A stretch of 64,000 nucleotides of DNA from an uncultured Actinomycetes bacterium (GTDB lineage Bacteria; Actinomycetota; UBA4738; HRBIN12): assembly GCA_964447335.1 (NCBI GenBank), contig CAYUSA010000001.1:63091-127090 (forward strand). The letters run 5' to 3'. The position numbers and the translations under genes were made by a program. Positions 2,297-33,216 of this stretch are shown in pieces. Each line of letters begins with the position of its first letter. Within the stretch, counting starts at the first letter, position 1. The notes below the pieces were generated by a model. The model did not search any database and was not told the DNA's origin. It worked only from the letters and a program-made list of their open reading frames with translations.

Positions 2297-4000
2297 ATGG
2301 GCCGGCGTGCACGCGTGCCGAAGGTACGAACGACGATGGTGCAGGAGGGTGTGCTCGAGCTTCCCCGGGTCGACGCGCGTCGGCGTTGGCCGGCCTGGCT
2401 GTGGTTCCTCTCCGGGTCGCTTGCGGTGGCGGGCGTCCTGCCCCTGGTGCCGTGGGCCGCACGGGTGCGGCTGTACGAGGTCGTCTCCGTTGCCGGCGTC
2501 GTCGCCGCGTTCGTCGGCATCCACCGCGCGCGGCCCGAGCGGCTGCTCGCGTGGCAGGCGCTGGCCGTCGGGACCGCCTGCATCTTCGCCGGGGACGTGA
2601 TCTTCGACCTGTATCCAGCGCTCCGGCAGATCCTGGCTCCGTTCCCCTCCGCTGCCGACATCCTGTGGCTCCCCGGCTACGCGATGCTGGCCGTCGGTGG
2701 ATGGATGCTGTTCCAGATCTCGGGACCAGGCGGACGGCGAGTCGGGTGGATCGACGTCTCCATCGCCGGCGTCGCCCTGGTCGCGGCCCTGTGGGTGTTC
2801 TTCGTGGATCCGCAGCTGCGAGTGGGTCGGTTCGACGAGCTGGACATCGTGATCGCTGCGTATCCCCTGGTCGACATCTTCCTGATCTCGCTCGCGTGCC
2901 GATTCCTGTTCGTCGCCCGCCCGTGGGAGGTCGGCCTGCGGCTGTTCACGGTCGGCCTGGGCGGGCTGCTGTTCGCCGACCTGTGGTACTCGACCGCGCT
3001 CGCGAGGGGCATCACCCAGCCGGCCTGGCCGGTCAGCGTGGGGTGGCTGCTGTGGCCGATCGCCCTTGGGACGGTTGCGCTGCATCCATCCATGAAGACC
3101 CTTGGCTCCGACCTCACCGCCGAGCGAACTGGCTCGGTCCCCAGGTCACGGGTGTGGATGCTGGCCGTACTGGGGCTCGTGCCGGCGCTCGCGTGGGTGC
3201 AGGCCGAGCTCCTGGGGGTTCCGGTGGACGGCGATATGGTGCTGCTCCAGGGCATCGTGTCCGCCCTCATGCTGTTCCGCGTGGGTGGCCTTCTCCGCGA
3301 GGTCGCGGCGCACCGCGCTCGGTTGGCGGCTCGAGAGGAGGAGCGCGCGCGGCTGCTCGAGCGCCTGCACGCCGTCGCCGAGGAGGAGCGCGTGGAGCTC
3401 TCGCGGGAGTTGCACGACGGTCCGATCCAGCACCTCGCGGGGATCGAGCTCGGGCTCGAGCGAGTGCAGATGCGTCTGGCGGCAGGCGACGTCGAGCGGG
3501 CGGCCGCCATCGCCGGCCAGTTGCAGGCGCAGCTGCGCGAGGAGGTCATCGGGCTGCGGCGGCTCATGGCCGACCTGCGCCCGCCGATCCTCACCGAGCG
3601 CGGGCTCGCGGCGGCACTCAAGGATCACATCGACGCGCTCGGTCGCCGGACGGACCTTCGTGTGGCGATGCAGGCCACACTCGACCAGCGGCTGGAGCCG
3701 GACGCCGAGGCCGTCCTGTTCCGGGTCGCGCAGGAGAGCCTGTCCAACGTCGTCCGGCATGCCCGAGCGAACCACGTGTGGGTCTGGGTCCAACGCCTGG
3801 ACGGCCAGGTCGAGCTCACCGTGCGTGACGACGGGTTGGGATTCGAGCCCGAGACGGTCGCCGAGCGGACCGATCGGCTCGGCCTGGTCTTCATGAGTGA
3901 GCGCCTCGCGATGGTCGGAGGCACGCTCGAGGTGCACTCGCGGCCGGGGTCCGGCACGGTCGTGCGCGCACGACTGCCCGTCGGAACGGAGGCGGCGTGA
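2297..4000 (+). CDS. membrane sensor histidine kinase, NarL-partner type (HisKA_3 + HATPase_c)
   Basis: Polytopic N-terminal membrane domain, then the dimerisation/His box ELHDGPIQHLAGIELGLE and a C-terminal ATPase domain (RDDGLGFEPE...MSERLAMVGGTLEV). An alternative start is the Met near 2336. Confidence 0.75.
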   Translation: MGRRARVPKVRTTMVQEGVLELPRVDARRRWPAWLWFLSGSLAVAGVLPLVPWAARVRLYEVVSVAGVVAAFVGIHRARPERLLAWQALAVGTACIFAGDVIFDLYPALRQILAPFPSAADILWLPGYAMLAVGGWMLFQISGPGGRRVGWIDVSIAGVALVAALWVFFVDPQLRVGRFDELDIVIAAYPLVDIFLISLACRFLFVARPWEVGLRLFTVGLGGLLFADLWYSTALARGITQPAWPVSVGWLLWPIALGTVALHPSMKTLGSDLTAERTGSVPRSRVWMLAVLGLVPALAWVQAELLGVPVDGDMVLLQGIVSALMLFRVGGLLREVAAHRARLAAREEERARLLERLHAVAEEERVELSRELHDGPIQHLAGIELGLERVQMRLAAGDVERAAAIAGQLQAQLREEVIGLRRLMADLRPPILTERGLAAALKDHIDALGRRTDLRVAMQATLDQRLEPDAEAVLFRVAQESLSNVVRHARANHVWVWVQRLDGQVELTVRDDGLGFEPETVAERTDRLGLVFMSERLAMVGGTLEVHSRPGSGTVVRARLPVGTEAA

Positions 4001-4440
4001 GCGAGGGGCGGGTGCTCGTCGCCGACGACGACGGCCTGGTGCGCGAGGTCGTGCGCGAGCTGCTCGAGGACTATGGGTTCGACATCGTCGGCGAGGCCGA
4101 GGACGGCTCCGTCGCGGTCCGCCTCGCCGGCGAGCTGCTGCCCGACGTCGTGCTGATGGACATGCGGATGCCCGTGATGGACGGCATCGAGGCGACGGCC
4201 GAGATCCGCGGCCGGCAGCCGAACGTCCAGGTCGTGATGCTCTCGGCCTACGACGACGAGGGGTTCAAGCAGGACGCCGAGCAGGCCGGGGCCCTGTGCT
4301 ACCTCGTGAAGGGCATGGGCGGCGGGCTGATCCGGGACGTGCTCCGCTCGGCCGTGGACACGGCGCGAGGGCTGGCGCTGCGAGGGATGGCCGCGGAGGC
4401 GAGCGGGCCTAGCGGGCGCGCTGGACCTTGCCGGCCTTGA
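3997..4440 (+). CDS. single-domain response regulator (receiver only, no output domain)
   Basis: Receiver-domain motifs [25 protein letters not shown] and YLVKG. The 147-aa protein ends without a LuxR helix-turn-helix. The start overlaps the kinase stop, and the 3' end overlaps convergent rpmB by 32 bp. Confidence 0.7.
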
Positions 4441-4600
4441 TGCAGCTCGTGCACGCGTGAACGCGCTTCGGGGTTCCGTTCACCACGGCGCGGACCCGCT
4501 GGATGTTGGGGTTCCACCGGCGCGGGCTCCGGCGGTGGGAGTGGGAGACCTGCATGCCGAAGAACGGCTTCTTCCCGCAGATGTCGCAGACGGCTGCCAT
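4409..4600 (-). CDS. rpmB: 50S ribosomal protein L28
   Basis: [63 protein letters not shown]. The ORF-track N-terminal extension is rejected and the start is placed at the ATG at 4598-4600. Confidence 0.93.
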
Positions 4601-4748
4601 GGCCGAGCAAGGGTAGCAGACGACCGGAGGCGGCCAACCCACGATCCTGAGCTCGGGGCTGGGCCCGCGTGCGCGCTCGGTCGGCCCGGCGTACGTACCG
4701 CTCGACGCCTGAGCGGAACGCGGATGACCCTCGTGGTAGAACCGACCC

Positions 4749-6983
4749 ATGCTTCCACCATGTTCTTCGGAGCGCCCGGTGGCGCTGACGCTCGCCTCGC
4801 CGGTCGAGGCGATCGATCGGCAGCTCGCGAACCGCCGCACCGGGTTCCGGACCAAGGGAGACCCGGCGCACGAGGTCCTCTCAGCCTCGCTCGGCATCCA
4901 GATCGTGGGGCAGCTGTTGCACCACTACCCGCGCCGGTACATCGACCGCTCGCAGGTGGCCAGGATCCGCGACCTCAAGATCGGGCAGCAGGCGACCGTG
5001 ATCGCGACGGTGAAGCGCGCGGTCAAGCGCCAGACCCGGCGTCACCAGACGATGGTCACCGTCACGCTGTACGACGGCTCCGGGTACCTGGATCTCACGT
5101 TCTTCAACCAGCCCTGGATGGCCTCGATGTACAAGGAGGGACACGAGGTCGCGGTCTCGGGCGTCGTGCAGCTCTACAAGGGTCGGCTCCAGCTCGCGAA
5201 CCAGGAGGTCGAGCTCCTCAAGGGCGACGAGGCCGACCTGGTCCACACCGGTCGCATCACGCCGGTCCACCGCGCGACCGATGGCATCACGACGCGCACG
5301 ATCCGGGAGCTGGTGCATCGCGCGCTCGAGCAGCTCCGCACGATCGCCGACCCGATGCCGCCCGACGTCGTCGCGGCCGAGCGGCTCTCCGCGTTCGACG
5401 GCGCGATCCGCCAGGTCCACTTCCCCGCCTCGCAGGAGGAGCGCCGGGCGGCCGAGGAGCGCCTGAAGTTCGACGAGCTGTTCACGCTCGAGCTCGGCGT
5501 GGCGTTCCGCAAGCACCGCGTCGAGGCCGCCCAGACCGGCGTCCGGCACGAGCCGGACGGGGCCCTCGTCCGGCGCCTGCTCGCGACGCTGCCGTTCGAG
5601 CCGACCGGCGCGCAGACGCGCGCGATGGGCGAGATCGACACGGCGATGGCGCGCCCCCGCCCGATGAACTTGCTCCTGCAGGGCGACGTCGGCTCGGGCA
5701 AGACGCTCGTCGCGCTCCACGCCGCGCTCGTCGCGATCCAGTCCGGGCACCAGGCCGCGATCATGGCCCCGACCGAGGTCCTCGCGGGGCAGCACTTCCG
5801 GTCGATGGCGGCGCTGCTCGGCCCCTTCGGCGCGATCCCGTACCTCGAGCTCACGGGCGCGCCGGATGACGGGCCGCAGAGCTCACTGCTCGAAGGACCC
5901 GAGGACGTACCCGCCGAGGCCGGGGTCACGTACGCGCTCCTCACCGCCGGGGTCACCGGCAAGGACCGGGTGCGGATCCTCGAGGGCATCGCGGGCGGCG
6001 ACGTCGACCTGGTCGTGGGGACCCACGCGCTCGTCCAGGAAGGGGTCGCGTTCGCCGACCTCTCGCTCGCGGTGATCGACGAGCAACACCGCTTCGGCGT
6101 GCACCAGCGCATGGCACTGAAGGGGAAAGGCGGCTCGCCGGACGTCCTCATCATGACGGCGACGCCGATCCCGAGGACCCTCGCGCTCACGTACTACGGC
6201 GATCTCGACGTCGTCGTCCTCGACGAGATGCCGAAGGGCCGGCAGCCGGTCGAGACGAAGATCGCGCGCACCAAGCAGGAACGCGACGCCGCCTACGCGC
6301 TCATACGCCGCGAGGTCGAGGCCGGACGGCAGGCGTTCGTGGTCTGCGCCGCGATCGACGAGGCGAACAAGAGCGAGGTCCGCGCCGCCGAGGCGGAGGC
6401 GAAGCGGCTTGCCGAGGACGTCTTCCCCGACCTCTCGCTCCACCTGTTACACGGCCGCATGCGTCCCGCCGAGAAGGAGCGCGTGATGGAGGCGTTCCGC
6501 TCGGGCGAGCACCACCTGCTGATCTCGACCACCGTGATCGAGGTCGGTGTCGACGTGCCGAACGCGACGGTCATGCTCGTCGAGAACGCCGAGCGGTTCG
6601 GACTCGCGCAGCTCCACCAGCTCCGGGGCCGGATCGGCCGCGGCGAGCACGCCTCGTCCTGCGTGCTCTTCGACGAGTCGAAGCAGGACAACGAGGAGGC
6701 CCGCGCCCGCCTGGACGCGATGGTCCGCACGACCGACGGCTTCGAGCTCGCCGACGAGGACCTGCGGCTCAGAGGTGAGGGCACCCTCTTCGACGTGAAA
6801 CAGTCCGGCATGCCCGACCTGAAGCTTGCGCGCCTGGCCGAGGACCTCGAGCTCGTCAAGCGCGCCCGCGCCCGTGCGTTCGCCGTGATCGACGAAGACC
6901 CGTCCCTCGAACGGCACCCCGGCCTGCTCCTCGAGCTCCGCTCGCGCTTCGAGCGCTCGATCGAGTGGCTTTTCCACTCCTGA
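4749..6983 (+). CDS. recG: ATP-dependent DNA helicase RecG
   Basis: 744 aa with a wedge-domain N-terminus, helicase motifs GDVGSGKT and [10 protein letters not shown], and the C-terminal [12 protein letters not shown]. Confidence 0.92.
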
Positions 6984-26358: not shown

Positions 26359-26360
26359 CG

Positions 26361-26753
26361 ATGGCCAAAGCGGACATCTTGATCGTCGAGGACCATCCGA
26401 CGATGCGAGAGGCGATGCGTCTCGTGCTCGAGCACGAGGGGTTCGTGATCCGCGAAGCGGCCGACGGCCCGACCGCCCTCGCGATGGTGCGCGAGCAGCC
26501 GCCGGACCTGATGTTCCTCGACCTCAACATCCCCGGCGCGAGCGGCGCCGACGTCCTGCAGGAGCTGAAGTCCGACCCGATCACGGCGGGCGTCCGCGTG
26601 ATCATCGTGACGGCGACCGGCGAGGAGGGGCGGGACTTCGTCATCGCGCTCGGCGCCGATGAGTACTTCACGAAACCGTTCTCACCGACGGCGCTCCTCC
26701 GGACCGTGGAGCGCGTGCTCGACCTCGGTGGGGCGGCTTCCCCGACGACGTGA
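26361..26753 (+). CDS. single-domain (CheY-like) response regulator
   Basis: ILIVEDH, LMFLDLNIPG, IIVTATG and YFTKPF motifs; 130 aa. It sits inside a longer out-of-frame ORF-track entry. Confidence 0.75.
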   Translation: MAKADILIVEDHPTMREAMRLVLEHEGFVIREAADGPTALAMVREQPPDLMFLDLNIPGASGADVLQELKSDPITAGVRVIIVTATGEEGRDFVIALGADEYFTKPFSPTALLRTVERVLDLGGAASPTT

Positions 26754-26803: not shown

Positions 26804-28141
26804 ATGTTCGACACGCTCACCGGCCGCCTGGACGGCATCTTCAAGAAGCTCCGCTCGCGCGGGAAGCTGCATCCCAAGCAGGTCGAGGGCGCGCTGCTCG
26901 AGATGCGCACCGCGCTCCTCGAGGCCGACGTCGCGGTCGAGGTCGCCGACGACCTGCTCGAGCGCGTCCGCACCCGCGCGCTGTCCGAGGAGGTCATGAA
27001 GAGCCTCACGCCGGCGCAGCAGGTCGTGAAGGTCGTGCGCGACGAGCTCCAGAGCACGATGGGTGGTACGCAGGCCCCGTTCCAGCTCGTCGGCGCCAAG
27101 CCGGCGGTCGTGATGATGGCCGGCGTGCAGGGCTCGGGCAAGACGACCGCGTGCGCGAAGCTCGCGGTGCAGCTGAGGTCCAAGGGCAAGCGACCGCTCC
27201 TCGTCGCCGCGGACCTGTGGCGGCCGGCGGCCGTCGAGCAGCTGATGACGCTCGGGCGCGAGATCGGCGTCGACGTCGTCTCGGACGGCAAGGACGCGGT
27301 GAAGGTCGCGAAGAGCGCGCTGAAGCACGCCGATCGCGAGGGCCACGACGTGGTCATCGTCGACACCGCCGGACGCCTGCACGTCGACGAGGAGATGATG
27401 CGCGAGGCCCGTCGCGTGAAGGACACCATCAAGCCCCACCACGTGCTCATGGCGTGCGACGCGATGACCGGTCAGGACGCCGTCGTGCAGGCCAAGGCCT
27501 TCATGCGCGAGGTCGACACGACCGGGTTCGTGCTCACCAAGCTCGACGGCGACGCGCGGGGTGGCGCCGCGCTCTCGATCACGGCGGTGACCGGTCGTCC
27601 GGTGTTCTTCGTCGGGACCGGCGAGAAGCCGCAGGATCTCGAGCCGTTCTACCCGGACCGGATGGCCTCGCGGATCATGGGCATGGGCGACGTGCTCACG
27701 CTCATCGACAAGGCGCAGGGGTCGATGGACGCGGAGACCGCCGCCGCGGCCGCCGAGAAGATGCTGAAGGCCCAGTTCACGCTCGAGGACTTCCTCGTCC
27801 AGATGCGTGAGATGAAGAAGCTCGGGCCTCTGCAGGACCTCTTGGCGATGCTTCCGGGGGTCCCCGGCGGCAAGAACGCCCTGAAGGACCTCCAGGTGGA
27901 CGAGGGCCAGATGGGCCGGGCCGAGGCCATCATCTGCTCGATGACCGGGGAGGAGCGCCGGAACCCCGCTATCATCGGTGGGTCCCGCCGCCTGCGGATC
28001 GCTCGCGGCTCCGGCGCGACGACGGCCGACGTGAACTCCCTGCTGAAGGAGTTCGAGGCCGCCAGGAAGATGATGAAGACGATGTTGGGCGGCAAGCGGA
28101 TGCCCCGGATCCCGGGGATGCCGACGATGCCGGGGATGTAG
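26804..28141 (+). CDS. ffh: signal recognition particle protein Ffh
   Basis: GVQGSGKTT, DTAGRLH, and a Met-rich M domain at the C-terminus. Confidence 0.92.
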   Translation: MFDTLTGRLDGIFKKLRSRGKLHPKQVEGALLEMRTALLEADVAVEVADDLLERVRTRALSEEVMKSLTPAQQVVKVVRDELQSTMGGTQAPFQLVGAKPAVVMMAGVQGSGKTTACAKLAVQLRSKGKRPLLVAADLWRPAAVEQLMTLGREIGVDVVSDGKDAVKVAKSALKHADREGHDVVIVDTAGRLHVDEEMMREARRVKDTIKPHHVLMACDAMTGQDAVVQAKAFMREVDTTGFVLTKLDGDARGGAALSITAVTGRPVFFVGTGEKPQDLEPFYPDRMASRIMGMGDVLTLIDKAQGSMDAETAAAAAEKMLKAQFTLEDFLVQMREMKKLGPLQDLLAMLPGVPGGKNALKDLQVDEGQMGRAEAIICSMTGEERRNPAIIGGSRRLRIARGSGATTADVNSLLKEFEAARKMMKTMLGGKRMPRIPGMPTMPGM

Positions 28142-28153
28142 GAAGGGAACCAG

Positions 28154-28444
28154 ATGTCGACGAGGATCAGGCTGAAGCGGCTGGGCGCGAAGAAGCGTCC
28201 CTTCTACCGCGTGGTGGTGGCGGACCAGCGCAGCCCGCGCGACGGCCGCTTCATCGAGAACATCGGCAAGTACCATCCGCTCGAGGACCCCTCGCTGATC
28301 GAGATCGACGAGGAGCGCGCTCTCTACTGGCTGGGCGTCGGCGCCCAGCCGAGCAACACCGTCCGCGTCCTCATGACGAAGGTCGGCATCTGGGAGAAGT
28401 TCCAGGCCGAGAAGCAGGCGAAGAAGGCCTCGACCGCATCGTGA
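28154..28444 (+). CDS. rpsP: 30S ribosomal protein S16
   Basis: [24 protein letters not shown]. Confidence 0.92.
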
Positions 28445-28671
28445 GAGACCTGCTGGAGTTCCTCGCCCGCGAGATCGTCGACGAGCCCGATGCGGTCGAG
28501 ATCGCCGAGAGCCACGACGACCGCGGCATGCTGCTCTCGCTGCACGTCGCGCCCGACGACATGGGCAAGGTCATCGGTCGGGGCGGGCGGACCGCCCGCG
28601 CCCTTCGAGCCGTGATCCGCGCGGCCGGCACGCGCACCGGCGTGCACGCCTCCGTGGAGATCGTCGACTGA
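28441..28671 (+). CDS. KH-domain RNA-binding protein (YlqC-like)
   Basis: GTG start overlapping the rpsP stop. KH motif [13 protein letters not shown]. Confidence 0.8.
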
Positions 28672-28673
28672 CC

Positions 28674-29189
28674 ATGGAGCCCGAGCCGACCGTCGTGGTC
28701 GGCCGCCTCACCCGCGTCCACGGCGTCCAGGGCGAGCTCTCCGTACTCGTGCTCTCCGAGGTACCCGGCCGGTTCGACGACGGAGCCGTCGTCTACCTCG
28801 AGGACGGGCGTGCGCTCACCGTCGAGTCCTCGCGCCCGCACAAGGATCGACTGCTCGTTCGCTTCCGCGAGGTACCCGATCGCACGGCCGCCGAGGCGCT
28901 CCGCGGCGCGCTCGTCGTCGTCCCGGCGTCCATGTCGCCGCCGCTGCCCGAGGGCTCGTGGTGGGACCACCAGCTCCTGGGCTGCGAGGTGCGCACCGAT
29001 GGCGACTTGGCTCTCGGGACGCTGACCGAGATCATCCACACCGCTGCGAACGACGTCTGGGCCGCCGTCGACGAGGCTGGGACGGAGACCCTCGTGCCCG
29101 CGCTGAAGGACGTGCTCGTCTCGGTGGACGTGGATGCGAAGCGGATCGTGGTGCGCGAGGTCCCCGGGCTCACGGTACCCGAGGACTGA
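28674..29189 (+). CDS. rimM: 16S rRNA processing protein RimM
   Basis: VGRLTRVHGVQGEL, then a PRC barrel. Confidence 0.88.
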   Translation: MEPEPTVVVGRLTRVHGVQGELSVLVLSEVPGRFDDGAVVYLEDGRALTVESSRPHKDRLLVRFREVPDRTAAEALRGALVVVPASMSPPLPEGSWWDHQLLGCEVRTDGDLALGTLTEIIHTAANDVWAAVDEAGTETLVPALKDVLVSVDVDAKRIVVREVPGLTVPED

Positions 29190-29204
29190 CGCGGGGAACC
29201 GCGT

Positions 29205-29699
29205 TCAGGACGGAGCCCGGCCGAGCGCCGCCTCGATCCGCGCGAGGCGCTCGTCGAGCCGATCGAGCCGCGTGATCGCTTGGCGGTCCACCTCGTAGTC
29301 GTGCTCGGCCTCGTCTCGGTCCATCGCCGACTGACGATTCTGGCTCATCATCACGACCGGCCCGGTGTACGCGGCCTGGAAGGACAACACGAGGTTGAGC
29401 AGGATGAACGGGTAGGGATCGAAGGGCTTGCCCCCGATCCAGTCCTTGATCAGGACGGCGTTCGCGAAGATCCACAGCCCGAGCAGCACGCTCTGCGTCG
29501 CGATGAACGGCCACGATCCGACGATGGCCGTCACACCGTCCGCGAGGCGCTCCCCGAGGGTCCGATCCTTGCCGTGGTGTCGGATGTTCACCGGATGCCG
29601 GTGAGCCTGCCGGTCCTTCGGGAACCGAAGCCGCATGTCCGCTCCTTCCGTGCGCCGCACCTTCCGGCCGAGCGGCAACGCTCGAACCGCCTTGCTCAC
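29205..29699 (-). CDS. DUF1003 family membrane protein
   Basis: Two transmembrane helices and a C-terminal coiled coil (SQNRQSAMDRDEAEHDYEVD...LDERLARIEA). The start may be the internal ATG at 29636, because only 28 bp separate 29699 from the divergent sigma gene. Confidence 0.65.
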   Translation of the reverse strand: MSKAVRALPLGRKVRRTEGADMRLRFPKDRQAHRHPVNIRHHGKDRTLGERLADGVTAIVGSWPFIATQSVLLGLWIFANAVLIKDWIGGKPFDPYPFILLNLVLSFQAAYTGPVVMMSQNRQSAMDRDEAEHDYEVDRQAITRLDRLDERLARIEAALGRAPS

Positions 29700-29727
29700 T
29701 CACCTAGTGTGACCGACCAGATGCCAC

Positions 29728-30183
29728 GTGGAGCTTGAAGATGTCTTCCGGGCCAACCAGAAGGCCGTGTTCGCCTACTTCCTGCGCGTCGTGGGGAGTC
29801 GGCAGGACGCCGAGGAGCTCACGCAGGAGACGTTCGTGCGGGCCTGCGGCGCCGCGCTCCGGTTCCGGGGCGACTCCTCGGTTCGGACCTGGCTGTTCGG
29901 CATCGCGCGACGCGTGCTGCTCGAGGCCGCGCGCGCGGGACTGTTCGAGCGGCGCCCCGAGCTCCCCGAGAACGCCGCACCGGCGGACGACCCGGACGAG
30001 CGGTTGGACCTCGAGCGCGCGTTGGGCTCGCTCGGCGTGGCCGACCGGGAGGCCCTCGTGATGGTGGACGTGCTCGGCTTCGAGCCGATCGAGGCAGCCG
30101 GACTCATCGGTGTCACGCCGGAGGCGATGCGCGTGCGGCTGCACCGCGCTCGAGCTCGGCTGCGGGAGGCGTACGGACGATGA
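29728..30183 (+). CDS. ECF-family RNA polymerase sigma factor
   Basis: GTG start. Sigma-2 region (AFAYFLRVVGSRQDAEELTQETFVRA) and sigma-4 region (DREALVMVDVLGFEPIEAAGLIGVTPEAMRVRLHRARARL). Confidence 0.85.
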   Translation: MELEDVFRANQKAVFAYFLRVVGSRQDAEELTQETFVRACGAALRFRGDSSVRTWLFGIARRVLLEAARAGLFERRPELPENAAPADDPDERLDLERALGSLGVADREALVMVDVLGFEPIEAAGLIGVTPEAMRVRLHRARARLREAYGR

Positions 30184-30713
30184 GCGACGAGACACCGCTC
30201 GACCTCCGTTCGCTCGCCGATGTCGAGTCCCCGGAAGTGGTCCGCGAGGCCTTGCGGACGTTCCGCCGCCGACTCTGGACGCGATACCTGTGGATCGGGC
30301 TCGCGATCGTGCTCGGCGCCGTGACCCTCGTCGTCGGGAACCGCCCCTCGAACTTGCGCGAGGAGATGGAACGGGCGGACGTGCGATCGGCTCCGGCAAG
30401 TCCCGTGTGGCACGTCGGCGGCCTATCGATCGCGCTCGCCGAGGTGGCCGACCTCGGTGACTCGACCGGCCTGCACTTCGTGGTGTTGCCCGATGCCGGA
30501 TCGAACGCATCGATCTGGGTCGGGGGTTCCACGTACGCGATGGCGTGGGGGGACTACGACACCTACGCGAAGGTTCCCAAGGGCACGAACGGGACCATCG
30601 AGGTGACGGTGGGACCCAGCGGGTGCGTCCCGACCTGTCCGAAGCAGGAGTCATTCGCCATCAACCTGCGAAAGCTGAGGATCCCGGCCAACGTCTGGAG
30701 GGAGGAGGGATGA
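30180..30713 (+). CDS. putative membrane-anchored anti-sigma factor (single transmembrane helix, extracytoplasmic Cys-containing domain)
   Basis: Translationally coupled to the sigma gene (ATGA overlap). A roughly 40-aa cytoplasmic N-terminus, one transmembrane helix (LWIGLAIVLGAVTLVV), and an exported domain with a CVPTC motif. No zinc-anti-sigma signature. Confidence 0.55.
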   Translation: MSDETPLDLRSLADVESPEVVREALRTFRRRLWTRYLWIGLAIVLGAVTLVVGNRPSNLREEMERADVRSAPASPVWHVGGLSIALAEVADLGDSTGLHFVVLPDAGSNASIWVGGSTYAMAWGDYDTYAKVPKGTNGTIEVTVGPSGCVPTCPKQESFAINLRKLRIPANVWREEG

Positions 30714-31147
30714 ACACCGAGGATCTGAACGCGCTCGATCGCACGACGCTGCGGGTTTGGCGGATCTGGAACCTTCTGGGCTGGGGCGCGCTGGGAGCCG
30801 TGGCCGGCATCGTGACCTTCGTGCTCTCGGCCAGGACCCTCGCCGGGGTGTTGATCGAGTTCCTCGACCTACCAGGTTTGGGGGTGGCGCTCCTCGTGTG
30901 CCTCGCGGCGGGCGCCGCGGTCGACGGCGTCATCGTCGGCAACCACGTGTACCGGTCGCCCGCATGGGTCGCGGCGATCGGCATCCTCGCGCCGGCGAGC
31001 GTGTTCGCGCTCAACACACCGATCGATGGTCCGGTCGAGAGTGCCATCGTGCTCGCCGGGCCGGTCGGCGGAGCGGTGATGGCGACGCTCGTCGCCCGAG
31101 CCCGGTTCCGTCGGCGGCCGCGCGCCCTGCGGGCCCCCGCCGCGTGA
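30710..31147 (+). CDS. small polytopic membrane protein (about four transmembrane helices)
   Basis: Strong ribosome-binding site GGAGGAGGG before the ATG at 30710. The start overlaps the previous stop. Hydrophobic helices throughout. Confidence 0.55.
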   Translation: MNTEDLNALDRTTLRVWRIWNLLGWGALGAVAGIVTFVLSARTLAGVLIEFLDLPGLGVALLVCLAAGAAVDGVIVGNHVYRSPAWVAAIGILAPASVFALNTPIDGPVESAIVLAGPVGGAVMATLVARARFRRRPRALRAPAA

Positions 31148-31170
31148 ACCCGCGCTGCTAGCCTGCGCTC

Positions 31171-31860
31171 GTGCGGATCGACGTCCTGACGATCTTCCCC
31201 GGCATCTTCGAGAGCTCGCTGCGCGAGAGCCTGCTCGGCAAGGCGATCGAGGCCGGACTCCTCGACGTCCGGCTGCACGACATCCGCGACTCGACGACCG
31301 ACAAGCACCGGCAGGTCGACGACGAGTCCTACGGCGGCGGGCCCGGCATGGTGATGAAGCCCGAGCCGGTGTTCGCGGCGGTCGACGCGCTCGGCGAGGG
31401 CTCCAAGCGCGTGCTCCTGCTCTCGCCGGCCGGTCGGCGGCTCGACCAGGCGCTCGTTCGTGAGCTCGCCGCCGAGCCGTGGCTCGTGCTGGTCTGCGGA
31501 CGCTACGAGGGCGTGGACGAGCGCGTCGTGGAGGGCCTGCCGGCCGAGGAGGTCTCGATCGGCGACTACGTGCTCTCCGGCGGCGAGGTGCCCGCGCTCG
31601 TGCTGCTCGAGGCGGTGACGCGCCTCGTGCCCGGAGTCATCGGCCGCGAGGAGTCGCACGAGCGCGATTCGTTCGGACCCGAGGGGCTCCTGGACCACCC
31701 CCACTACACGCGACCGGCCGAGTTCCGGGGGATGCGCGTGCCCGACGTGCTCCTGTCCGGCAACCACGCCGAGATAGAGCGTTGGCGCCGCGAGGCCGCC
31801 CTGGAGAAGACCCGCCGCAACCGCCCCGACCTGCTGGAAGACGGCTCCGAGCCCGGCTAG
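31171..31860 (+). CDS. trmD: tRNA (guanine37-N1)-methyltransferase
   Basis: [26 protein letters not shown] and GRYEGVDER motifs. Confidence 0.92.
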
Positions 31861-31896
31861 GCGCCGCGAGCTTCTGCTATCGTTCCTCGTCCCGCC

Positions 31897-32487
31897 ATGA
31901 AGAACACCGACCTCATCGACAAGGCGTACCTTCGCGCCGACCTGCCCGAGTTCCGACCCGGCGACACCGTCAAGGTGCACGTCCGCGTCGTCGAGGCGGG
32001 CCGCGAGCGCGTCCAGGTGTTCCAGGGCGTGGTCATCCGCCGGCAGGGTGGTGGACTCCAGGAGACCTTCACCGTCCGCAAGATCTCCTTCGGCGTCGGC
32101 GTGGAGCGCACGTTCCCGGTGCACTCGCCGTCGATCTCCAAGCTCGAGATCGTGTCCCGCGGCAAGGTCCGCCGGGCGAAGCTCTACTACCTGCGCGAGC
32201 TGCGCGGCAAGAAGGCGCGCATCAGGGAGCGCCGCATCGAGGGCGAGGACCTCGCCGCCGTGAACGCCGCCGCCATCGCCGCCGGTCTCGCCGCGGAGGA
32301 CTCGGGGACCGAGGAGCTCGAGCAGGACGCCGAGCTCGAGGCGGAGGCGATCCAGGAGCCCGTCCAGACCGAGGCTGAGGCCGAGGTCCAGGCGGCCGCC
32401 GAGGCCGACGCCGCCGAGCCCGAAGCCGCCGAGCCCGAAGCCGTCGAGGCTGACGCGCCCGCGGGCGACGCCGAGGCGCAAGCCTAG
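31897..32487 (+). CDS. rplS: 50S ribosomal protein L19 with an acidic Ala/Glu/Pro-rich C-terminal extension
   Basis: An L19 core of about 115 aa, then roughly 80 aa of AEPEA-type repeats. Confidence 0.9.
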
Positions 32488-33216
32488 GTGGACCAGCCGG
32501 CCGGCTCGGACGAGCCGGTCGAGGCCAACGCCCCGACCCCCATCGCTGCGGAGGACGGTTCCCCCGCGCCCTCCGCCGTCGACGACGCGTTCGCGGCGGG
32601 CCGCAAGGGCGACGACTCCCGCGAGCCCGACGGCAGCGCGATCGCCTTCTTCCGCGAGCTGCCGGTGCTCGTCATCATCGCGTTCGCGCTCGCGATCGTG
32701 CTGAAGACGTTCTTCGTGCAGGCCTTCTACATCCCCTCGGGCTCGATGGAGCCGACCCTCGAGCCGGGGGACCGGGTCCTCGTGATGAAGGCCTTCGACA
32801 CCCAGCGGCGCGGCGACATCGTGGTCTTCGAGGACCCCAAGCCCGGGCGCCAGCCCGATCGTGGCGTGATCGGCGGGTTCCTCCACTGGCTGTCCGAGGG
32901 CCTCGGGTTCGCGCGCCCGGCAGACGAGGATTTCATCAAGCGCGTGATCGGCCTGCCGGGGGAGACCGTCGAGCTCCGCAACGGGAAGCTGTTCGTGGAC
33001 GGCGAGCAGATCGACGAGCCCTACCTCCGAGGGCCCGTCGACACGCGCGACTACGGGCCCGTGACGGTGCCCGAGGGCAAGCTGTTCGTCCTCGGCGACA
33101 ACCGGCTGAACTCGAACGACTCGAGGTACGGGCTCGGCTTCGTCCCGCAGGGTAAGGTCATCGGCGAGGCGTTCGTCATCATCTGGCCGCCGTCTCGGAT
33201 CGGGTGGTTGCACTAA
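32488..33216 (+). CDS. lepB: signal peptidase I
   Basis: GTG start. SGSMEPTL, GDNRLNSNDSRY and GKVIG motifs. Confidence 0.88.
   Translation: MDQPAGSDEPVEANAPTPIAAEDGSPAPSAVDDAFAAGRKGDDSREPDGSAIAFFRELPVLVIIAFALAIVLKTFFVQAFYIPSGSMEPTLEPGDRVLVMKAFDTQRRGDIVVFEDPKPGRQPDRGVIGGFLHWLSEGLGFARPADEDFIKRVIGLPGETVELRNGKLFVDGEQIDEPYLRGPVDTRDYGPVTVPEGKLFVLGDNRLNSNDSRYGLGFVPQGKVIGEAFVIIWPPSRIGWLH

Follow-up and report, generated by a model that had tools for sequence, protein, structure and literature searches.

Extracytoplasmic function (ECF) sigma factors with membrane partners are a known kind of system. In the sigM-yhdL-yhdK operon of Bacillus subtilis, which is autoregulated, genes for a sigma factor, a single-pass anti-sigma factor and a small polytopic membrane partner are co-transcribed; YhdL and YhdK are thought to hold SigM jointly, and the anti-sigma domain of YhdL is canonical, N-terminal and longer than the cytoplasmic segment considered here. 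We have analyzed a 64-kb stretch of DNA from an uncultured Actinomycetes bacterium (contig CAYUSA010000001.1; hereafter the window, with a GC content of ~70%, in whose numbering all coordinates are given), in which the gene of a minimal ECF sigma factor is followed, between rimM and trmD, by genes for two membrane proteins that we call B and C. This sigma-B-C trio shares the three-gene order of sigM-yhdL-yhdK and differs from it in that no relationship by sequence to any named family was detected, in the ~35 cytoplasmic residues of B and in the phylum. What stands out at the locus are the slowly evolving sigma factor, two partners with short conserved cytoplasmic segments and a junction that is a hot spot for insertions beside a probable promoter of leaderless trmD mRNA. 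We consider it reasonably probable that the trio is a self-contained, autoregulated ECF sigma factor system in which B and C, as an anti-sigma complex, keep the sigma factor at the membrane, and that the junction in which it lies is a boundary between transcription units and a site of frequent insertion.

Two other groups of systems invite comparison. With the class II systems, CnrH-CnrY-CnrX and those of the NepR type, the trio has in common a very short cytoplasmic segment on a small membrane protein and a set of three components; unlike the Cnr system, it has another gene order, a 110-aa beta-sandwich ectodomain on B and, as its third component, a four-helix membrane protein in place of a periplasmic sensor. 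The ECF40 group (SigD of Mycobacterium tuberculosis and Corynebacterium glutamicum, and ShbA of Streptomyces) is likewise actinobacterial, and the GGTAAC-N17-CACTCA motif of the trio recalls its GTAAC element and its spacer of ~16-18 nt (PMC12019637). ShbA, too, shows high conservation, and its regulon is tiny. Unlike ECF40, whose -10 element is CGAT/CGATGA, the trio has CACTCA at that position, and the similarity of the sigma factors is weak; moreover, ShbA has no anti-sigma factor, and RsdA, the anti-sigma factor of SigD, is a different protein from B and C.

The surrounding cluster, rpsP-(KH)-rimM-trmD-rplS, has the same genes in the same order here as in other Actinomycetota, followed as there by lepB, rnhB, DUF2469, UPF0102, a Mg-chelatase-like gene and dprA. 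Unlike in the usual bacterial cluster, rimM and trmD are uncoupled in this clade, and the spacer between them has a -10-like element and variable cargo. A literature search found no paper on an ECF sigma factor between rimM and trmD.

A conserved trio of sigma factor, B and C

The trio and the elements upstream of it are as follows.

29674-29702, plus strand: ECF-type promoter-like motif, with a -35-like GGCAAC(GCT) at 29674-29682, a 17-nt spacer and a -10-like CACTCA at 29697-29702
29709-29716, plus strand: conserved box GTGACCGA (consensus GTGAACGA), placed by alignment between the -10-like element and the start codon
29728-30183, plus strand: minimal ECF (group IV) sigma factor, 151 aa (Sigma70_r2, 8.1e-15; Sigma70_r4_2, 1.8e-9)
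30180-30713, plus strand: protein B, 177 aa, putative anti-sigma factor with a cytoplasmic N-terminus, one transmembrane helix and an extracytoplasmic beta-sandwich
30710-31147, plus strand: protein C, 145 aa, a four-helix membrane protein by its AlphaFold2 model, putative co-anti-sigma factor or stabilizing partner

The three genes occur in constant order, overlapping or abutting one another, in at least 12 independent loci, which were found by searching for the trio. At the rimM-trmD junction the trio is present in at least eight further lineages (loci L003, L008, L010, L011, L012/L013, L014, L015 and L017, of which the L010 trio is cut by a contig end). Outside the ribosomal cluster it is present in at least four (L004, L009, L006/L007 and L016), where the genes downstream are CMD, luciferase-like or none. 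In L006 and L016 a paralogous trio lies divergently beside the first (3757-5397 and 3270-4865, both on the minus strand); its sigma factor is 50-56% identical, its B counterpart shares the motif at the N-terminus and the DKLDRATMTTWR motif is present in its C-like protein, so the module has been duplicated there. In a distant trio (L098) the sigma factor is 54% and B 26% identical, C has the same N-terminal motif and the three-gene arrangement is kept. The trio is a conserved evolutionary unit and not a one-off insertion.

The sigma factor is conserved about as strongly as Ffh and TrmD, and B and C far less. In the seven other complete embedded loci the sigma factor is 81-93% identical to that of the window, Ffh 81-91% (74-91% overall), TrmD 77-90% and RimM 59-75% (52-76% overall), and B is 39-61% and C 38-53% identical. 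The same ranking is found for the trios elsewhere, with 77-82% for the sigma factor, 31-50% for B and 32-44% for C. More than 120 sigma clusters were found at 74% identity or higher, all of them from uncultured Actinomycetota, and the rate of evolution is unusually slow for an ECF sigma factor.

By domain content the protein is an ECF sigma factor, having regions 2 and 4 only, with neither region 3 nor region 1.1, and it scores 71.8 bits against TIGR02937 (NCBIfam cutoff 42.9). The sigma factor reached the cutoff of none of the named ECF equivalogs of NCBIfam, SigM, SigC and SigE among them; the best match, the SigJ-like PRK08241 (88.8 bits, cutoff 240), was rejected, as was SigM, PRK09643 (71.6 bits, cutoff 190). 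It matched SigE of M. tuberculosis (1.6e-13, 54 bits) and, among PDB sequences, CnrH (4cxf, 5e-9). Membership of ECF40, a candidate prompted by the GTAAC at -35, was ruled out by sequence; the match to ShbA (9ISN) was 24.9 bits (E = 1.7e-4), and that to sigma-4 of SigD (3VEP) had E = 0.004. The start codon of the sigma gene is GTG, ATG or TTG by locus, at a position conserved in the alignment, and the sigma/B and B/C junctions are both ATGA stop/start overlaps. An earlier note, made from the letters of the window, had described a rimM-trmD pair split by a minus-strand DUF1003 gene and a translationally coupled ECF cassette. All of these genes were found where the note had placed them, and the cassette is genuine.

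The insert in the window does not look like a mobile element: no flanking direct repeats beyond chance and no integrase were found at the locus, and its flanks have neither target-site duplications nor terminal inverted repeats. GC content is 0.65-0.73 over the locus, like that of the flanks, with no break in composition. Neither Rfam nor tRNA scans of the complete window gave a match, and PADLOC defence models gave no match for the sigma factor, B or C, and chance-level matches only for the DUF1003 protein. On a separate contig, that of P0020, a trio lies ~7 kb from a phage-type integrase gene, a gene of the HTH_17 (excisionase-like) type and several small genes that are unknown, a context that hints at a module able to ride on an integrative element.

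Proteins B and C and the promoter-like motif

The AlphaFold2 models of both membrane proteins agree with the topology given in the earlier note, single-pass for B and four-helix for C. In the model of B (predicted local distance difference test, pLDDT, 88.6) a helix at residues 18-53 comprises a cytoplasmic part and the transmembrane segment, and a beta-sandwich follows at ~70-177. Confidence is low for residues 1-20, as would be expected of a binding peptide. In the family alignment residues 1-38 are almost invariant (PLDLRSLADVxSPEVVRxALRxFRRR), and this N-terminus is retained in distant family members. The ectodomain, a beta-sandwich of ~110 aa, is variable among relatives and takes insertions; it contains cysteines, as had been claimed, and its CxxxC is conserved in the closer half of the family only. 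The model of C (pLDDT 88.4) has four long helices. Conservation in C falls on the N-terminal helix (DLxxLDRTTLRxWRxxNLxGW), on a GxHVYRxP loop and on the RRRPRALR tail. When the AlphaFold2 helices are oriented by the positive-inside rule, the conserved motifs of B and C are all predicted to be cytoplasmic. Directly 5' of the C gene is GGAGGGAGGAGGG, a GGAGG-rich ribosome-binding site.

B could not be assigned to a described anti-sigma class. Its cytoplasmic segment of ~35 aa contains no His and no Cys and for that reason cannot contain HxxxCxxC, the motif of the zinc-binding ZAS type; B is not a class I anti-sigma protein (ZAS, RskA, ChrR, FecR), because it is too short, lacks these residues and has no family match. 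The same conclusion had been reached from the sequence of the window. The class II domains (CnrY/NepR, ~30-45 aa), which bind across sigma-2 and sigma-4, fit the segment in length and position and do not match it in sequence; B resembles them in size only. Pfam scans of 44 members of the B family gave no match, and neither did a profile search of PDB sequences with the family. An hhalign comparison of B with C, which tested the homology of their N-terminal DLxxL motifs, was not significant. The homology and structure searches suggested for both proteins yielded no Pfam, NCBIfam, PDB-sequence or specific fold match for either, and the description of B and C as uncharacterized partners stands: they are uncharacterized families, co-conserved with the sigma factor. 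The B family comprised 34 clusters in a word-indexed search and 129 in an exhaustive HMMER search of 1.84 billion representatives, all unnamed proteins from metagenomes or metagenome-assembled genomes (MAGs). Among 185,579 species genomes B was found in just three Actinomycetota MAGs.

A promoter-like motif precedes the sigma gene and travels with the module across genomic contexts. The upstream regions of ten loci in varied contexts align only at GGTAACGCTCG-N11-TCACTCA, at the GTGAACGA box and at the start codon, and the columns of the motif are invariant over these ten loci. The consensus of the motif is GGTAACGCT-N13-TCACTCA, with GGTAACGCT as its -35-like part. Of the 16 fetched loci in which the start of a trio is covered, 15 have a single copy of the exact pattern AACGCT-N14-CACT, and 14 of the 15 copies are ~50 nt 5' of the sigma gene (the position of the copy in L001 was not computed); the exception among the 16 is L098, which has a diverged version only. 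No copy was present in 82 loci without a trio start (~400 kb). Within the 64-kb window the copy upstream of the sigma gene is the sole placed match at one mismatch or fewer; the other one-mismatch match is unplaced, and the four matches found at two mismatches or fewer are within the range of shuffled sequence. ECF promoters typically contain AAC at -35, and ECF40 sigma factors use GTAAC (PMC12019637). The motif would most simply be the autoregulatory promoter of the module.

Several smaller features surround this motif. The nine other aligned loci read GTAAC at -35 (GGTAAC in eight of them), and GGCAAC is found in the window only; its lineage is the one that gained the divergent DUF1003 gene, which starts 91 bp from the sigma start. 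The GTGACCGA box is probably in the 5' untranslated or start-site region, as judged from its place in the alignment. At 29695-29716 a 4-bp inverted repeat, TCAC-N5-GTGA, extends over the -10-like element, and it reads TCAT-N5-ATGA in L003, L008 and L011. These paired changes look compensatory, and an operator or a 5'-end hairpin is conceivable, but the repeat is too short to interpret. The sigma 5' region, when folded, was no more structured than its shuffled controls, and consensus scans of 28000-32600 found no sigma-70 promoter and no intrinsic terminator.

The rimM-trmD junction

The junction in the window is bounded and occupied by the following features in addition to the trio.

28674-29189, plus strand: rimM (Pfam RimM, 8.4e-19, and PRC_RimM), last gene of rpsP-KH-rimM and left flank of the insert
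29205-29636, minus strand: DUF1003 membrane protein, 143 aa (PF06210, 3.5e-32, 111.1 bits against a gathering threshold of 27.4)
31156-31164, plus strand: TGCTAGCCT, extended -10-like element, its last T 6 nt before the trmD GTG
31171-31860, plus strand: trmD (PF01746, 1.7e-64), heading trmD-rplS-lepB-rnhB and right flank of the insert

The distance from rimM to trmD is 1,981 nt in the window. The states of this junction elsewhere were taken from a TrmD-based scan of metagenome contigs, and the figures given are those among the matches listed. The near-constant adjacency of rimM and trmD from which the earlier note started is borne out in distant relatives (TrmD identity of 65% or less), where the gaps are -13 to +125 nt wherever both genes are visible. 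It does not extend to the close clade (TrmD identity of 74% or more), in which the junction is contiguous in nine loci, contains the trio in 8-9 and contains other cargo in six. The contiguous junctions have a spacer of 11-50 nt in eight loci, and in L027 the two genes overlap. The other cargo consists of a secreted, membrane-anchored 190-aa protein (L025 and L026), a TsaA/YaeB-like gene on the minus strand (L037), ACR3 with ArsC (L029), or a Crp/Fnr regulator with a membrane protease of ~780 aa that has cyclic nucleotide (cNMP)-binding domains (L033 and L035); in L018 a gap of 392 nt contains no confident gene. On a neighbour-joining tree of TrmD, a single gene with weak resolution, loci in these states are interspersed. 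In this clade the junction is a hot spot for insertions.

The start of trmD is marked by an element of its own. TAGCCT is found 6-8 nt 5' of the start codon (GTG or ATG) in 30 of 32 close-clade loci, regardless of what lies upstream. It is usually part of TGnTAGCCT, with no Shine-Dalgarno sequence, and was seen in the window, in L003 and L008 and over the range L011-L039. The two exceptions are L027, with its rimM overlapping trmD, and L036, with a gap of 41 nt; the element is absent at trmD of the distant relatives. In mycobacteria the SigA -10 element is TANNNT, located between -12 and -7, and a transcript that begins with ATG or GTG needs nothing further for leaderless translation (PMC6448022). 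The element before trmD fits both rules, and TGCTAGCCT is a putative promoter from which trmD would be transcribed without a leader. The junction is probably a boundary between transcription units and would therefore tolerate insertions, including those on the opposite strand, and it is because of this boundary and of the hot spot that the trio would be found between rimM and trmD. The gap between C and trmD is 23 nt; folding of this gap and of the convergent rimM/DUF1003 gap gave nothing beyond shuffled controls.

The DUF1003 gene is separate, lineage-specific cargo on the opposite strand and not part of the trio. Apart from the window it is present in L001 alone, a Logan contig near-identical to the window over their overlap (~99-100% for most genes, 91% for TrmD), and is absent from all other trio loci. 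It is on the minus strand, as the earlier note had said, and its true start is almost certainly not the GTG at 29699 but the ATG at 29636, which has an AAGGAG Shine-Dalgarno sequence 5 nt ahead and is the start in an independent gene call. A reading frame from GTG 29699 would run over the conserved promoter motif of the sigma gene. Unrelated genes for lipoproteins, with a signal peptide and a lipobox Cys and likewise on the opposite strand, lie between rimM and the sigma gene in L012 (3016-3525, minus strand) and between C and trmD in L011 (1762-2259, minus strand). They are reminiscent of the lipoprotein gene lppW of M. tuberculosis, which interrupts trmD-rplS on the opposite strand.

The gene order in the window is ftsY, a receiver-only response regulator, ffh, rpsP, a KhpA-type KH gene, rimM, DUF1003 (minus strand), ECF sigma, B, C, trmD, rplS, lepB and rnhB, and the ftsY-to-rimM part of this synteny is also kept in relatives. 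The response regulator gene (~26360-26753, plus strand), which encodes a receiver domain only, keeps its position between ftsY and ffh in relatives; in L003 and L017 it is followed by an opposite-strand histidine kinase gene that is absent from the window. Ribosomal protein L19 of the window (31897-32487, plus strand) has 196 aa, of which the Pfam domain covers 111 positions. Beyond this domain is a C-terminal tail of ~80 aa, acidic, rich in Ala and Glu and of low complexity; L19 of relatives has 150-195 aa, with the length of the tail varying.

Proposed mechanism and its alternatives

In the mechanism that we propose, the sigma factor would be transcribed from its own conserved promoter, GGTAACGCT-N13-TCACTCA, and would be made in fixed proportion with B and C by way of the overlapping ATGA stop and start codons. 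B would be anchored in the membrane with its N-terminus in the cytoplasm, where its near-invariant 35-residue segment most likely binds and sequesters the sigma factor, and C most likely completes the anti-sigma complex at the membrane or stabilizes it. The variable part of B, its beta-sandwich ectodomain, would receive a signal or be sensitive to a protease, and loss of B would free the sigma factor. TrmD would be expressed from its own -10-like element, the placement of which suits a leaderless mRNA. A transmembrane protein whose gene is at +1 of an ECF gene is usually taken to be the anti-sigma factor, the majority of these proteins lack a Pfam match, and multi-pass and dual anti-sigma arrangements are known (PMC7826278). 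A tentative and less probable extension of this proposal is that B and C make up a split class of anti-sigma factor not described before, which would clamp sigma-2 and sigma-4 of a slow-evolving, possibly essential, clade-defining ECF sigma factor; B would contribute its N-terminal peptide and helix, and C its N-terminal helix and basic tail.

Several observations weigh against the proposed mechanism. The cytoplasmic part of B has ~35 aa where a class I anti-sigma domain has ~70-90 aa, and no anti-sigma Pfam family was matched by B or by any of 43 relatives. The -10-like CACTCA lacks the CGT core that is common in ECF promoters, and the window copy of the -35-like element (29674-29679) is GGCAAC and not GGTAAC. 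The motif was not found a second time, either in the window or over ~500 kb of related loci, and so no regulon is visible beyond the operon itself. No terminator-like structure was found between C and trmD, by consensus scan or by folding against shuffled controls, so that some read-through from the sigma promoter into trmD-rplS-lepB is possible. Finally, the loci behind the counts of junction states are not an unbiased sample, as those with the trio were sought by means of the trio.

The roles of the two membrane proteins may be distributed differently. C could be the anti-sigma factor, a polytopic one, and B an extracytoplasmic sensor or accessory that modulates C as CnrX acts on CnrY. The conserved motifs of C are all cytoplasmic by prediction, its basic tail RRRPRALR is invariant, the larger ectodomain belongs to B, and several ECF groups include putative anti-sigma factors that cross the membrane four or six times (PMC7826278). 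We nevertheless regard this assignment as unlikely, since it is B that has the canonical +1 position with the ATGA overlap, and conservation of the N-terminus of B, which equals or exceeds that of the motifs of C, extends to the most distant members. More doubtful is a role for B and C as the main co-transcribed targets, that is, as envelope effectors and not regulators, of a sigma factor that is controlled transcriptionally only, like ShbA. Neither protein has a recognizable anti-sigma domain, and the high conservation of the sigma factor recalls housekeeping-like ECF sigma factors such as ShbA (PMC12019637); a target role does not readily account for the strict three-gene linkage and the translational coupling, which persist across contexts, paralogues and distant members, or for the concentration of B and C conservation in cytoplasmic segments, as expected of an interface with a cytoplasmic partner.

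The position of the trio could itself be functional, as the earlier note had envisaged in proposing a coupling to ribosome biogenesis or an interruption of trmD/rplS expression. Read-through driven by the ECF sigma factor would couple envelope stress to trmD-rplS-lepB, genes for tRNA modification, a ribosomal protein and signal peptidase, or the insert would insulate these genes from the rpsP promoter. It agrees with such a function that the trio and trmD are co-oriented, with only the short terminator-less gap between them, that the arrangement is retained in at least eight diverged lineages and that lepB, an envelope gene, lies downstream. Retention in these lineages speaks at the same time against a one-off event, and the trio, with the same promoter, is found also away from the cluster with different genes downstream. 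In close relatives the junction is contiguous or is filled by unrelated and opposite-strand cargo; in L011 the opposite-strand lipoprotein gene splits C from trmD, and trmD has its own conserved promoter-like element. We think a function of the position improbable, and neither a dedicated coupling to ribosome biogenesis nor an interruption of trmD/rplS is supported. The earlier note had also held that a conserved, annotated locus in related genomes would speak against its proposal; the locus is indeed conserved, and a functional annotation was found in no source.

Much of bacterial signalling relies on ECF sigma factors that are paired with membrane-bound anti-sigma factors, for which only a few structural classes of anti-sigma domain have been defined. 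In this clade the textbook linkage of rimM and trmD does not hold; the break is at a probable promoter of leaderless trmD mRNA, where the junction has become a landing site for diverse envelope-related genes, and the locus cautions against reading function from position alone. The proposed mechanism makes the module a compact candidate for another anti-sigma class, built from a 35-residue cytoplasmic segment and an obligatory four-helix partner. Its sigma factor has a rate of evolution as low as that of core genes of translation and secretion, a hint that its role may be central in this uncultured soil lineage of Actinomycetota.

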